IMG/VR virus record: IMGVR_UViG_3300003471_000084
Location: 1 to 62,083 of that record
Source of the DNA: a virus
Taxonomy: Duplodnaviria > Caudoviricetes
Strand: one strand, 5' to 3'
DNA: 62,083 bases
A model generated the notes under the pieces. It was not told the DNA's origin. It worked only from the letters and a program-made list of their open reading frames with translations, and did not search any database. Each line of letters begins with the position of its first letter. Within the stretch, counting starts at the first letter, position 1. Below are positions 2,945-58,509 of the stretch, one piece after another. A program made the position numbers and the translations under genes.

Positions 2945-3151
2945 ATGAAGATATTAGGAAAAGCTGTTCGAAAACTGTATCGATTTAATTGTCCGAATTG
3001 CGGGAGCCGGTTAGAAGCCGAGTATCAAGAGATGGAGGATATCGGCGGTAAGATTAATAAGTTCTTCTGCCCCATCTGCCGTAAAGACCGTTTTATCAAT
3101 TGGTCATCTCTAAGTAAGAAAATCGTCTATGAGGATGATGCTCCGCAATAA
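2945..3151 (+). CDS. Small zinc-finger protein
   Basis: CPNC...CPIC. Confidence 0.6.
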   Translation: MKILGKAVRKLYRFNCPNCGSRLEAEYQEMEDIGGKINKFFCPICRKDRFINWSSLSKKIVYEDDAPQ

Positions 3152-3182: not shown

Positions 3183-3374
3183 ATGGATAAATTAATAGTA
3201 AAACAAGGTATCAGAATGATCGGAGGTCTTGCTATGTTATGCATTGGTGTCCGGCTTATTTATAAGTCTGGTTGTCAACAAGGCGTACTTATAAGCGAGA
3301 TGGTTGTCGAAAAATATGAACCAGAAGCATACGAACGTTTATGTAAAATCGTTACTAATTATAAAAAGGACTGA
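3183..3374 (+). CDS. Small hypothetical protein with one hydrophobic segment
   Basis: RBS AAAGGAG before ATG 3183; followed by hairpin terminator. Confidence 0.65.
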   Translation: MDKLIVKQGIRMIGGLAMLCIGVRLIYKSGCQQGVLISEMVVEKYEPEAYERLCKIVTNYKKD

Positions 3375-8331: not shown

Positions 8332-8883
8332 ATGAAGGTATTAAGACAAAGAGAATTGGAAGTTAAGAATATTCGGGTTGGTGACCAGATCGTCATCCCG
8401 TTGGCTGAGCTTGGTGAATTTACCGCAACTGCGCAGAAAATCACAGACAAAGGACCGTTGTTCTTGTTTGACGAATGCATTGCAAAGCAGCCTATGAATA
8501 AGAAATGGACCAACAAAGGCGGTTATGAAAAATCGGATCTCCGAAAGTGGATCAACACGACGTTGCTGGATGCATTTCCGGAAGAATTGAAGAACAGGAT
8601 GAACAATCTTACCATTCCTACATACGGCCAGATATTCGGCCATGACGATTGGTATGATCGTGCTATAGAGCCTGACAGTGACGAGCAGTTTCCTCTCATG
8701 GTAATAAGAAAAAACCGTATTGCCGACTTCAACAACGACTACGAATGGTACTGGCTGGCAAACGCAACGAGAGAAGAAGTGTCTGCGTCTTCTTTCGCTC
8801 GTGTGTACCACGATGGCGGTACGTACTACGACGGCGCGTCGATCTCTCTTGGGGTTCGTCCGGCATTCGTGTTGGTTGACTAG
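8332..8883 (+). CDS. Remote DGR target: stand-alone DUF6273/C-type-lectin-like protein
   Basis: C-terminal VR matches TR; GGYEKSDL, IPTYGQIFG, QFPL, WYWL and GVRPAF motifs parallel those of 55076..56050. Confidence 0.88.
   Translation: MKVLRQRELEVKNIRVGDQIVIPLAELGEFTATAQKITDKGPLFLFDECIAKQPMNKKWTNKGGYEKSDLRKWINTTLLDAFPEELKNRMNNLTIPTYGQIFGHDDWYDRAIEPDSDEQFPLMVIRKNRIADFNNDYEWYWLANATREEVSASSFARVYHDGGTYYDGASISLGVRPAFVLVD
8780..8863 (+). repeat. DGR variable repeat VR2
   Basis: 84 bp colinear with TR 57119-57202; 15 mismatches, all at TR adenines. Confidence 0.95.
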
Positions 8884-8908
8884 ATCTCCGCCCCTCGTGG
8901 GCGGGATC
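8883..8908 (+). other. Post-VR2 GC-rich hairpin (DGR homing element)
   Basis: GATC-T-CCGCCC-CTCGT-GGGCGG-GATC; same position and loop type as the hairpin after VR1. Confidence 0.75.
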
Positions 8909-33972: not shown

Positions 33973-34107
33973 GGTTTCTGTATAGCATTTAAAAGAGCTC
34001 GCAAGGTTTGTCAATGGTCAAAAACCATTTTTTTCAATCCTCCTTTTCTCCTTTCAAGTTTTGTTTAGGATGAACCTTGTGAGTTCTTTTAAATGCTATG
34101 CAAAACC
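33973..34107 (+). ncRNA. Long hairpin RNA with anti-Shine-Dalgarno loop
   Basis: 33-bp stem 33980-34012 / 34069-34101 in which all 5 non-Watson-Crick pairs are G-U on the + strand; loop contains TCCTCCTTTTCTCCTTTCAA. Confidence 0.7.
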
Positions 34108-35629: not shown

Positions 35630-35990
35630 TAACTTTATAGCTCACCACGGCATCCTCGGAATGAAATGGGGAGTCCGAAGAACCCAAGCTCAGCTCACAA
35701 GATCCAGAGGACGTTCTTCAACCGAAGAATCGCATGAGGATTACAAGAAATCCCATACATCGAAGAGCGTTAAATCTATGAGTGATACTGAGCTTCGTAG
35801 TAGGCTCAATCGTATCCAGATGGAGCGACAGTATTCTCAGTTGTCCGAAGCAAATGTTAGCCAGGGAAAAGCATTTGCACAAAAATTCCTTAAAGGTGCT
35901 ACTACTGTCGCTACCGTCACAACAACTGCTATCACGCTCTACAACAATTACGAGAAAATCAAGGGAATTCTTGAGAAGATCAAGAATTAG
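35622..35990 (+). CDS. HHGILGMKWG-motif (DUF7211-like) protein 1
   Basis: N-terminal IAHHGILGMKWGVRR. Confidence 0.75.
   Translation: MSNNFIAHHGILGMKWGVRRTQAQLTRSRGRSSTEESHEDYKKSHTSKSVKSMSDTELRSRLNRIQMERQYSQLSEANVSQGKAFAQKFLKGATTVATVTTTAITLYNNYEKIKGILEKIKN
35641..35696 (+). repeat. 56-bp perfect direct repeat, copy 1
   Basis: Identical to 37780-37835. Confidence 0.9.
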
Positions 35991-37763: not shown

Positions 37764-38231
37764 ATGGATAATGCTTTGACTCACCACGGCATCCTCGGAA
37801 TGAAATGGGGAGTCCGAAGAACCCAAGCTCAGCTCGGTGGTCTTAGTAAAAAGGATAACCGATGGGTAAATCGCAACAGCGACAAGATAACCGATAAAGC
37901 TAAAAGAAAGTCTTCCACAGAGTTGGATAAGTATGCTAGCGAGCTTTTAAAAGATCCAAATGCCATAAACAAATCTGGAAAGCTCAGTGCTGCAACTATT
38001 AATTCTTATAATCGGAAGATGGCTTCGCTAATGAGCGAGAAGGTTTCCGGATTGACATCGCCTTCTGGAAAAGTGGTGCAATTCGTAGCTAAACGAGGAG
38101 AAGTCGGTGTCTTTATGGCGCTTGCCGATCAAGGCTACAACATGAATCAACTTCGAAATGGCATCTACGATTCGGGTAAAGTTGCCTACAAGAAAACCCT
38201 TATCGATAAAGTTGAAACCAGAAGGAGGTGA
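37764..38231 (+). CDS. HHGILGMKWG-motif (DUF7211-like) protein 2
   Basis: N-terminal LTHHGILGMKWGVRR. Confidence 0.75.
   Translation: MDNALTHHGILGMKWGVRRTQAQLGGLSKKDNRWVNRNSDKITDKAKRKSSTELDKYASELLKDPNAINKSGKLSAATINSYNRKMASLMSEKVSGLTSPSGKVVQFVAKRGEVGVFMALADQGYNMNQLRNGIYDSGKVAYKKTLIDKVETRRR
37780..37835 (+). repeat. 56-bp perfect direct repeat, copy 2
   Basis: Identical to 35641-35696. Confidence 0.9.
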
Positions 38232-55075: not shown

Positions 55076-56050
55076 ATGAAAATTACAGATTACGAAAAGG
55101 TCTCAAACCTCGCAATAAACAATGTGTTTTTGATTGACGGGGATAATGGTACCAAAACAATCATGGCTTCCGATCTTGCGAAAGCTTTGGTTAAGCTTCT
55201 AAGCTCTAAGGATTTTATTTCAGGGGTAAATCTTTCAGAGCTTGATCAGATCAATGCTCTGTCAGCAAGTGACAAGATTCTTATTGGAACGTCGGCCGGA
55301 AACAAGGCTATCGGAGCAAATGACGCGCTTTTTGCAATGCTTGATGCTTTCATTGCTCCGGAGCAGCGTCGTGTTACTTTCAGAGGAAAGAATTTAGGAT
55401 CAGTCTTTACCCCTGAGCAAAAGACAAACATTCAAAATGGAACATTCAAAGGGTTTTTCCTTGGTGACTATTGGGTTATCGGCGGCCACACCTGGCGTAT
55501 TGTAGACTTTAATTATTGGTATAATTGCGGGGATACTGCATTTACCAATAATCATCTTGTCATTATGCCTGACGTTGCTTTGTATAATGCACAAATGAAT
55601 GCTGAAAATGTAACAACTGGCGGCTATGTTGGATCGCTGATGTATACGACCAATCTTGCAAATGCTAAAACCATTATCAATTCAGCTTTCGGCAGTTCGG
55701 TGCTAACGCATAGAGATCTTCTCGTAAATGCCGTAGCGAATGGCGCTCCTTCAGGTCATGCATGGTACGATTCTTCGGTGGAACTCCCTAACGAAATTAT
55801 GATGTATGGAAGTTATATCTTTTCTCCGGCTGCAAATGGAACCACGATCCCGTATCTTTATACCATCAACAAAACACAATTGGCGCTGTTCCAGGTCGTA
55901 CCAAAATTCATTGTGAATAGATCATACAATCAATGGTTGAGGGATGTCGTGTCTGCGTCTTTTTTCGCTTTTGTGGGCAGCATTGGCCTTACGACCTACC
56001 ACTACGCGTCGAACTCTTTTGGGGTTCGTCCGGCATTCCCTATTGGTTAG
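55076..56050 (+). CDS. DGR target 1: putative receptor-binding tail protein with C-terminal lectin-like domain
   Basis: End of tail module; C-terminal VR; ends GVRPAFPIG. Confidence 0.88.
   Translation: MKITDYEKVSNLAINNVFLIDGDNGTKTIMASDLAKALVKLLSSKDFISGVNLSELDQINALSASDKILIGTSAGNKAIGANDALFAMLDAFIAPEQRRVTFRGKNLGSVFTPEQKTNIQNGTFKGFFLGDYWVIGGHTWRIVDFNYWYNCGDTAFTNNHLVIMPDVALYNAQMNAENVTTGGYVGSLMYTTNLANAKTIINSAFGSSVLTHRDLLVNAVANGAPSGHAWYDSSVELPNEIMMYGSYIFSPAANGTTIPYLYTINKTQLALFQVVPKFIVNRSYNQWLRDVVSASFFAFVGSIGLTTYHYASNSFGVRPAFPIG
55950..56033 (+). repeat. DGR variable repeat VR1
   Basis: 84 bp colinear with TR; 14 mismatches, all at TR adenines. Confidence 0.95.
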
Positions 56051-56052
56051 CT

Positions 56053-56077
56053 AATCTAGGGGCCTTGTGCCCCGATT
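56053..56077 (+). other. Post-VR1 GC-rich hairpin (DGR homing element)
   Basis: AATC-TA-GGGGC-CTTGT-GCCCC-GATT. Confidence 0.75.
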
Positions 56078-56478: not shown

Positions 56479-56619
56479 ATGGAACATAGCAAGAATTACG
56501 GTAAGGTAAAGAGTTGGTACGACCTGAAGATGTGGCCCGAGTCTCGTGTGCGCGATGCTGTTGTAATGAACTGGATTACCGAAGACGAGTTCACTGAAAT
56601 CACCGGTAAGGCGTATTAA
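56479..56619 (+). CDS. XkdX-like small protein, not in ORF track
   Basis: KVKSWY...W...V..AV...WITEDEFTEITG.Y; RBS GGAGG. Confidence 0.75.
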   Translation: MEHSKNYGKVKSWYDLKMWPESRVRDAVVMNWITEDEFTEITGKAY

Positions 56620-57110
56620 TGAGTGTTCTCGTAAGTGACCGAAAAGAGTCCAAATTCGAGGCAATAACTTACTCGGTCGAGTTGAGAAATCTAATCATTG
56701 AACTTATGCAACGGGGATTCGGTATCAAAGATTTGAATGCTGTCGCTCGTCAACGGTATATATTTGGAAAAGACAATATAGAGAATCCAGCGAAATACGT
56801 TTATTTGATACAGACTTTTAAAGAGCGAATCCATTTGACGGCTTCTTTAGTAACGAGTAACGTAAGGGCTGCTAACTCTATTTATCCGACCTCTCTTGCA
56901 GAATACGAACAGAGACGAGGTTATCAGAATATCGCCATAGCCAACTGTGAACAGCTTATTTCTGAGCTACAGCAAATTGTCGAGGTCTTCGACGTTGATA
57001 TCAATATCTATGGCAAATACATCCAAGCTATCGACCGAGAAATCGGTTTGATAAAGAAATGGCGTCAACGCGACAACAAGATTAAGTCACATCTACAGGG
57101 TAACATCTAA
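56619..57110 (+). CDS. avd: DGR accessory variability determinant (Avd-like four-helix bundle)
   Basis: Immediately upstream of TR and RT; helical, ends IGLIKKWRQRD. Confidence 0.75.
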   Translation: MSVLVSDRKESKFEAITYSVELRNLIIELMQRGFGIKDLNAVARQRYIFGKDNIENPAKYVYLIQTFKERIHLTASLVTSNVRAANSIYPTSLAEYEQRRGYQNIAIANCEQLISELQQIVEVFDVDINIYGKYIQAIDREIGLIKKWRQRDNKIKSHLQGNI

Positions 57111-57118
57111 ATCTGCGC

Positions 57119-57202
57119 TGTCTGCGTCTTATTTCGCTAATGTGAACAACAATGGCAATACGAACTACAACAACGCGTCGAACTCTAATGGGGTTCGTCC
57201 GG
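57119..57202 (+). ncRNA. DGR template repeat (TR)
   Basis: Intergenic between avd and RT; ten AAY triplets and 23 adenines; differs from VR1 and VR2 only at A. Confidence 0.95.
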
Positions 57203-57312
57203 ATTCTCTGACTAACCAACAGAGAAGGAGATGTTGTCCTTTCCTACAAGGAGAAATAACAAAGCCGGACGCAATTTACTACGGTAAGTATTGCTATAAC
57301 GGTGAATAATTT

Positions 57313-58509
57313 ATGACTTATGAGGAAATCGCTTGCGATGCCAACAACTTGTATGGGGCTTACAAGGCTTCTGTGAAAGGTAGCAAATGGAAAGAAACTA
57401 CTCAGAAGTTCATGATGAATTTCTTGAGGTACATCTTTTCTATTCAAGAGGACCTTATCAATCGCACTCTTCAAAATAGTGCGACAGATGAGTTTTCGCT
57501 ATCTGAACGAGGCCGAGTAAGACCCATTACAAGTATTCCAACAAGAGATCGCATAATCAGACACGTGCTATGTGACGAAGTTTTACTTCCAGAAGTCCGG
57601 AAGCACATCATATACGATAACGGAGCCTCGATTAAAGGGAGAGGAATCTCTCATTCAAGAAATCGATTCGAGGTTCATCTAAGAAAGTATTATAAGGCAC
57701 ACGGTAGCGAAGGTTATATTCTGTTTGGCGATTTCAGTAAGTTTTACGATAATATTATTCACGAAATTGCCAAGAGGGAGCTTTTGAAGCTGCTCGGAGA
57801 CGACGAGTTCGTAGATTGGTTACTTACTCTGATATTTGACGAATTTAGAATTGACGTTTCTTATATGTCAGATGAAGAGTACACAACTTGTATGACCGAC
57901 ACCTTCAACAAACTTGAATATAGGTTAATCCCTAAAGATCTTCTCACCGGCGAGAAATGGATGGATAAGTCTGTTAACATTGGCGATCAGTTGAGCCAGA
58001 TTATCGGTATCTACTATCCGCATCGAATGGACAATTACGTTAAATACGTAAGAAGCCAGAAGTTCTATGGAAGATATATGGATGACTGGTATATTATGAG
58101 CCCAAGCAAAGAAGAATTGCAGGATTTGCTTGAAAATATTCGAGTAATAACCAGCGAACTTGGCATTCATATCAACGAAAAGAAAACTCATATCGCAAAG
58201 ATTAACAGCACCTACAAATATTTGCAGGTTAAATACTCACTTACGAGTACCGGTAAAATCATCAAGCGAATGAACCCAACACGAGTTACCGCCATGCGTA
58301 GAAAACTTAAGAAGCTGGCCGTTAAAGTTCGAAACGGTGAAATCATCTACGATCATGTCGAGAATATGTTTCGTAGTTGGATGGGAAGTTTCTACAAGCT
58401 GTTATCAAAGCAACAACGACTCAACTTAATATCGCTCTATGAGGACCTCTTCGATAAAAAGATTAAGGTCGTCAACAAAAAACTTATCGTAGAGGAGGTT
58501 CACACATAA
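57313..58509 (+). CDS. DGR reverse transcriptase
   Basis: RDRIIRH, GDFSKFYDNI, IGDQLSQ, YGRYMDD, INEKKT; adjacent to TR. Confidence 0.95.
   Translation: MTYEEIACDANNLYGAYKASVKGSKWKETTQKFMMNFLRYIFSIQEDLINRTLQNSATDEFSLSERGRVRPITSIPTRDRIIRHVLCDEVLLPEVRKHIIYDNGASIKGRGISHSRNRFEVHLRKYYKAHGSEGYILFGDFSKFYDNIIHEIAKRELLKLLGDDEFVDWLLTLIFDEFRIDVSYMSDEEYTTCMTDTFNKLEYRLIPKDLLTGEKWMDKSVNIGDQLSQIIGIYYPHRMDNYVKYVRSQKFYGRYMDDWYIMSPSKEELQDLLENIRVITSELGIHINEKKTHIAKINSTYKYLQVKYSLTSTGKIIKRMNPTRVTAMRRKLKKLAVKVRNGEIIYDHVENMFRSWMGSFYKLLSKQQRLNLISLYEDLFDKKIKVVNKKLIVEEVHT

Follow-up and report, generated by a model that had tools for sequence, protein, structure and literature searches.

The unpaired loop of a 23-nt RNA hairpin lying just after the TR of a gut-type phage's DGR is complementary to the IMH region behind both VRs of that element, and comparison with homologous loci indicates that this match is a real, conserved and covarying feature of an ordinary DGR. 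By analogy to BPP-1 this hairpin most likely constitutes the template:primer duplex, and it is probable that its RNA leader, composed of the loop and the 3′ arm, steers the cDNA onto the IMH.

The prophage and the parts of its DGR

The stretch of DNA analysed here (62,083 bases at its full length, in the following the window) is a provirus record containing integrase, tape-measure and lysis genes, and it is a prophage carrying an intact and complete DGR. A YxDD reverse transcriptase (RT) lies beside the TR, an Avd-like gene is present, the differences between TR and VRs are confined to TR adenines, the IMH differs from the IMH*, and a GC-rich inverted repeat follows the VRs and is absent after the TR. 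Close relatives of the RT are found mainly in Lachnospiraceae and other Clostridia. The features discussed below are:

8332..8883, + strand: target gene 2 (remote), an ORF of 183 aa with a profile match to DUF6273, 48 kb from the TR
8780..8863, + strand: VR2, 15 differences to the TR, 15/15 at TR adenines
8866..8877, + strand: segment of the VR2 IMH that complements loop and arm of the RNA, exact at 8870-8877
8888..8904, + strand: GC-rich target hairpin after VR2
55076..56050, + strand: target gene 1 in the tail region, an ORF of 324 aa with VR1 at its 3′ end, C-terminus matching phrog_21980
55950..56033, + strand: VR1, 14 differences to the TR, 14/14 at TR adenines
56036..56050, + strand: segment of the VR1 IMH that complements RNA 57212-57226; 56043-56050 faces the loop
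56059..56073, + strand: GC-rich target hairpin behind VR1 that also resembles a terminator
56619..57110, + strand: avd, 163 aa, matching phrog_3206 'Avd protein of DGR' (E 2.9e-10)
57097..57108, + strand: 5′ strand of the avd:spacer duplex (cPRT-Stop equivalent), pairing with 57229-57240 and covarying in homologues
57119..57202, + strand: TR with 23 adenines, identified by repeat comparison with the VRs
57204..57226, + strand: hairpin with loop 57211-57219, the predicted template:primer duplex (RNA fold; position as in BPP-1)
57229..57240, + strand: 3′ strand of the avd:spacer duplex, pairing with 57097-57108
57240..57303, + strand: remaining spacer (MFE fold; roles assigned by analogy to BPP-1)
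57313..58509, + strand: DGR reverse transcriptase, 398 aa, YMDD (PF00078; phrog_1423, E 1.8e-59)

For the avd product, searches returned no Pfam match and no matching NCBIfam match, and no third VR was found in the whole record. VR1 alleles differ among related contigs, which may be read as an indirect sign of RT-dependent mutagenic homing. The window also holds repeats outside the DGR. A 30-nt intergenic motif (CGC...TATTATGAAA-like) recurs seven times, at 3142, 3723, 5258, 5512, 7690, 9721 and 29930, and probably represents phage promoters or operators; three related terminator-like copies lie at 3370, 5229 and 7891. An exact 56-nt duplicate (35641-35696 and 37780-37835) is situated near the starts of two genes, and a 33-nt inverted repeat with 88% complementarity and 64 nt between its arms occupies the intergenic positions 33976-34105.

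The hairpin after the TR is read as the template:primer duplex because the avd:spacer duplex begins 2 nt after its last A, as in BPP-1. A57226 is followed by GG, after which 57229-57240 pairs with avd 57097-57108, and among homologous combinations the avd duplex starts exactly 2 nt past the last A of the hairpin in 65/67, so that the BPP-1-type order of a duplex ending in A, a G and the avd:spacer duplex 2 nt on recurs in nearly all of them. By position, A57226 is the predicted priming base and A57203 the predicted first template base. The avd:spacer duplex itself covaries, with −16.7 kcal/mol for cognate versus −10.7 kcal/mol for permuted combinations of 31 types (0/20,000 permutations), the set comprising loci with a TR/VR pair plus locus L121; L123, L288, L121 and L296 provide examples. 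Its location 2 nt before this stop duplex disfavours the hairpin as an Avd-binding stem-loop. A separate tetraloop stem of approximately 9-11 bp between the TR end and the primer strand is absent from the hairpin types, which span 20-27 nt and consist of one stem.

Downstream, the MFE fold of the spacer shows a short stem-loop (57240-57254), an A-rich single strand and a long stem-loop (57264-57303), the last being capped by a UACG tetraloop of the UNCG type that also closes the Avd-binding element of BPP-1. By this analogy the long stem-loop may have assumed the Avd-binding role, and Avd may also contact the 57211-57219 loop. RNA contigs of two metatranscriptome studies end at 57241, where DNA contigs run through, and in one RNA run several short contigs pile up at 57100-57241, between the two positions where the avd:spacer duplex has its outer ends. 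As contigs cannot reveal RNA ends, these ends are a weak hint of expression. One 119-nt RNA contig within this interval has 17 differences. No strand-change joint of an RNA-cDNA chimera was found in the matching contigs, the only material searched for it.

Complementarity and covariation of loop and IMH

The sequence-only reading of this DNA had noted that the stem 57204-57210/57220-57226 encloses the loop 57211-57219, that 57212-57219 exactly complements 56043-56050 on the VR1 side and 57214-57221 does so for 8870-8877 on the VR2 side, and that the two target genes read the common TTGGTT in different frames (I-G-stop versus L-V). All of this could be confirmed, the stem-loop being present in the sequence as well as in the RNA fold. 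On the VR1 side the match exceeds the noted 8-mer, as 57212-57226 faces 56036-56050 without gaps at 13/15 bases, and on the VR2 side 8866-8877 forms 11 Watson-Crick pairs plus a one-base RNA bulge. The matched DNA had been placed downstream of the IMH; it actually belongs to the IMH region, located between the GC-rich end of the VR and the target hairpin, and both flanks sit where the homing mechanism requires them. TTGGTTAG occurs four times and TGTTGGTT eleven times in the window (both strands), and only 0.15% of 31,032 sampled 20-nt segments pair as well with the 16-nt loop and arm as either flank does. Together with the permutation and swap tests in homologues described below, this sampling leads us to reject chance 8-mers as the whole story.

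The target hairpin is preceded by a further flank motif, RATC, at 56054-56058 (VR1) and 8884-8887 (VR2). This motif is complementary to the TR end GGAUU (57201-57205), with which it could pair and thereby lengthen the predicted duplex for both VRs. RATC was observed in 55/70 unique flanks and RATC plus C/T in 45/70, in an analysis whose TR side was fixed by the search pattern.

Homologous loci were gathered by their RT and by a DNA pattern that fixed the TR end and the post-hairpin AAGGAG while leaving the loop free. Many metagenome matches to this pattern are chance and not DGRs, and two viral scans with divergent RT queries mostly returned the same contigs. A TR/VR pair was present in 340 of at least 515 sequences gathered, many of them repeat fetches of one contig. 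Anchoring condensed 338 rows to 70 unique hairpin/flank pairs with 26 hairpin types among the matches listed, L121 being added by hand; including L236 gives 71 unique pairs and 27 types. Rows with no anchor motif, truncated flanks or an N were dropped.

The earlier reading had proposed covariation in homologous DGRs as a check, and over the 70-71 unique pairs cognate loop/flank combinations indeed beat all 20,000 permutations. With RNA:RNA parameters as a proxy for all pairing energies and permutations at the level of types, which ignore relatedness, the last 17 nt reach −14.9 with the cognate flank versus −11.0 with permuted flanks (23 types, 0/20,000), and the loop alone −7.0 versus −5.1 (15 types, 0/20,000); for positions −17 to −7 the cognate arrangement likewise exceeds every permutation (18 types). 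The corresponding counts are 26/20,000 for the 3′ arm alone and 3,668/20,000 for the opposite-strand control. A swap test on 17 disjoint pairs, hand-picked off a FastTree RT tree and in some cases spanning unresolved branches, left 14 informative pairs, one side being identical in the other three, and the cognate combination was better in 12 of these 14 (p 0.013) and in 10/12 for the loop side (p 0.039). Single-position tests on the tree gave two independent supported pairs, too few to reach significance. The idea of a guide-like loop is thus backed by covariation as far as the pairing is concerned, but the guide would most likely include the 3′ arm, and the DNA it matches is the IMH region itself. 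Nothing points to the special help in reaching a distant locus that had been suggested, as the same match exists at adjacent and remote VRs alike: the motif is present in 7/7 unique pairs of remote VRs and in most adjacent VRs.

TTGGTT accompanies the AACCAA loop in 58/63 pairs, the other five showing short G or TGG insertions or changes, and 6/8 pairs without AACCAA are also without TTGGTT. As 63/71 pairs have one common loop core, the covariation signal rests on few lineages. Clear changes on both sides are seen in L105, which carries the loop AACCGA and compensating TCGGTT at both of its VRs, in L324 and L121, which contain unrelated loop sequences, each with a matching flank, and in L070, which reaches 13 contiguous base pairs. 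Two reading frames and three offsets (9, 10 and 13) are represented among the occurrences of the flank motif, and the leader pairs better with the IMH than with the TR's own arm in all 27 hairpin types. L110 and L128 show weak loop pairing. In the per-position table, which is inflated at −7 to −14 where the pairs were anchored, positions −5 to −7 pair poorly (Watson-Crick in 36-45/71), and an RNA C stands opposite A at −7 in 21/71 pairs, VR1 of the window among them.

Degenerate VR copies with 5-7 non-A differences occur in three loci (L031:13103-13190, L034:12387-12474 and L069:13106-13193), downstream of the RT and in short frames, those of L034 and L069 being identical. They are devoid of both the motif and the hairpin, and because the hairpin is also missing they do not isolate the contribution of the motif. 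The TR position of three further loci (L121:9790-9890, L001:7538-7619 and L016:8606-8694) is occupied by a copy that is poorer in adenines and shows numerous non-A differences, which could reflect overwriting of the TR by a mutated copy or mis-assembly.

A proposed leader RNA model of homing and its alternatives

In the course of events that we propose, RT-Avd would prime at A57226 and copy the TR from about A57203 upstream, making errors at adenines, until cDNA synthesis stops at the avd:spacer duplex, as judged from BPP-1. The product would be an RNA-cDNA chimera in which the RNA, with the loop and 3′ arm at its end, is covalently joined to the 5′ end of the cDNA, and this leader, running in the same direction as the cDNA, would extend the antisense strand across the IMH. 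Pairing would nucleate where the unpaired loop meets the sense strand of the IMH, which the target hairpin or replication would make accessible, after which the 3′ arm would swap its partner from TR to VR and the cDNA would anneal. Host enzymes would finally remove the RNA and seal the product, as in the model of Naorem et al. Because the loop's complement follows the VRs and not the TR, such pairing would give homing its TR to VR direction as well as an address common to adjacent and remote targets.

A further-reaching version is possible rather than likely, namely that this clade swapped the Avd-binding stem-loop for a minimal programmable guide. Here the 7-9 nt single-stranded loop alone would choose the VRs to be rewritten, possibly assisted by a second clamp formed by the TR end GGAU on RATC, so that a joint change of loop and IMH would retarget the DGR without touching priming.

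Three other explanations of the complementarity were weighed against the leader model. It could be a footprint of homing with little effect on targeting, if leader RNA annealed or copied during integration occasionally converts the IMH. Covariation and motifs common to several VRs would be predicted by such a process as well. Conversion should, however, make the bases nearest to the junction most alike, and these are the most mismatched ones observed; moreover, the distal core opposite the loop remains paired across a register variation of −1 to +3, an impression which anchoring on this core inflates. According to PMC5703328, the boundary of coconversion in BPP-1 is located upstream of the first base copied. 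We regard a mere by-product as unlikely.

Alternatively, the two sides could be held by separate constraints, the flank by the protein end (I/V-G-stop) or by an IMH-reading protein and the loop by Avd or RT binding, leaving the complementarity as a historical remnant. The clade does lack the usual Avd stem-loop, the loop must adjoin Avd if the RNP resembles that of BPP-1, and the long-spacer loci L528, L532 and L536 have similar flanks without a matching RNA. Such independence is difficult to reconcile with L105, L121 and L324, in which both sides changed to new complementary sequences, with a motif kept in two frames, and with RNA position −7, where T faces A in 10/10 tree rows; we give it little credence. 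The two frames and the changes on both sides likewise lead us to reject protein constraint alone, which may still contribute.

Binding of the loop to the 3′ end of the target transcript, tethering the RNP to a transcribed gene or regulating that gene, is very improbable: sense DNA and mRNA are indistinguishable by complementarity and the VR1 hairpin is terminator-like, yet the match abuts the cDNA junction in register for one continuous antisense strand, and the BPP-1 DGR in E. coli favours targets in which the lagging-strand template is the strand complementary to the cDNA (PMC12875486).

If the leader model is true, it explains the TR to VR direction, predicts which VR copies are live and provides a criterion for selecting the targets of DGR-based mutagenesis tools. 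An IMH-matching loop that is unpaired makes the model testable without disturbing the priming duplex, and L105, L121 and L324 are natural compensated loop/IMH pairs, ready to be swapped.

Comparison with known DGRs

The covariation found here lends support at the sequence level to the homing model published in 2017, apparently without an earlier test, and a 20-27 nt primer hairpin that does without the internal stem-loop of its relatives, leaving an unpaired IMH-matching loop, is also new. The work of Handa et al. has reportedly also appeared in a journal, as has, in 2025, a study on DGRs of Bacteroides, and either could bear on primer-IMH pairing. In the literature searched, which covered subscription papers thinly and included PMC6182149, PMC5758913, PMC3240598, 10.1101/2025.03.24.644984 and PMC8867640, no test of primer-IMH pairing or its covariation was found. 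Handa et al. call homing poorly understood (bioRxiv 10.1101/2023.10.23.563531), and Unlu et al. 2026 call the integration step unknown (PMC12875486).

Long-spacer DGRs of Bacillota phages (Acutalibacter phage Fontainebleau, Faecalibacterium phages Toutatis, Brigit and Taranis, Roseburia phage Shimadzu) resemble the window in having AA-GG followed by the avd duplex, but their hairpins span 48-64 nt, contain an inner stem-loop and show a contiguous primer-VR match of only 2-7 nt. Among the 17 unique cases, no loop-type pairing was found; the primer arm matches the VR over a longer stretch than the TR in 11, equally in two and worse in four, never over more than 7 nt. L528, L532 and L536 have an ATCGGTT..ATC flank without an in-register complement beyond these 2-7 nt, and a DNA pattern for long spacers yielded two loci, one with a TR/VR pair. 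These results suggest that the flank may predate the loop and that loop-extended pairing may be specific to the window's clade. An inner stem-loop with the motif GAGTA(G) is common to the long spacers of L135, L138, L139, L140, L141 and L537, and its complement ACTC/CTACTC occurs 10-40 nt downstream in the VR flanks of L139-L141, which could be chance.

The RNA elements described by Handa et al. are a template:primer duplex, a cPRT Stop, and Avd-binding and bRT-binding stem-loops (bioRxiv 10.1101/2023.10.23.563531). As in their bRT-Avd-RNA, the prediction for the window comprises a stop duplex, then a stem-loop accompanied by adenines, and a long stem-loop on the 3′ side. In their survey, hairpins just after the TR are termed 'putative Avd-binding', whereas the first hairpin of the window sits at the position of the primer duplex; their Table S3 may include the window's clade.

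For BPP-1, PMC5703328 describes cDNA priming at SpA56 from a TR:Sp duplex (primer strand Sp47-56) with G57 being required, and Sp59-70 is reported to pair with the avd 3′ end, Sp57-58 separating the two duplexes (bioRxiv 10.1101/2023.10.23.563531). Naorem et al. 2017 noted more extensive pairing of the RNA primer with IMH than with IMH* and proposed that this directs integration (PMC5703328); in our control, Sp40-56 gave −20.0 with IMH and −8.7 with IMH*. The window agrees with BPP-1 in the order avd-TR-spacer-RT, in the priming A followed by G and an avd:spacer duplex 2 nt on, in the preference of the primer RNA for IMH over IMH*, and in the GC-rich VR end and target hairpin. It differs in the size of the element, as BPP-1 places 73 nt with an Avd-binding stem-loop between TR118 and A56, compared to 23 nt in the window and 20-27 nt in its clade, and the window hairpin has a 9-nt loop and no inner stem-loop. 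The target hairpin loop measures 5 nt and is not GRNA as in BPP-1. Most IMH-matching primer bases of BPP-1 also pair with the TR and thus lie in a duplex, whereas those of the window are mostly in the unpaired loop. The basis for the pairing differs as well, being one sequence comparison in the 2017 proposal for BPP-1 and covariation among homologous DGRs here.
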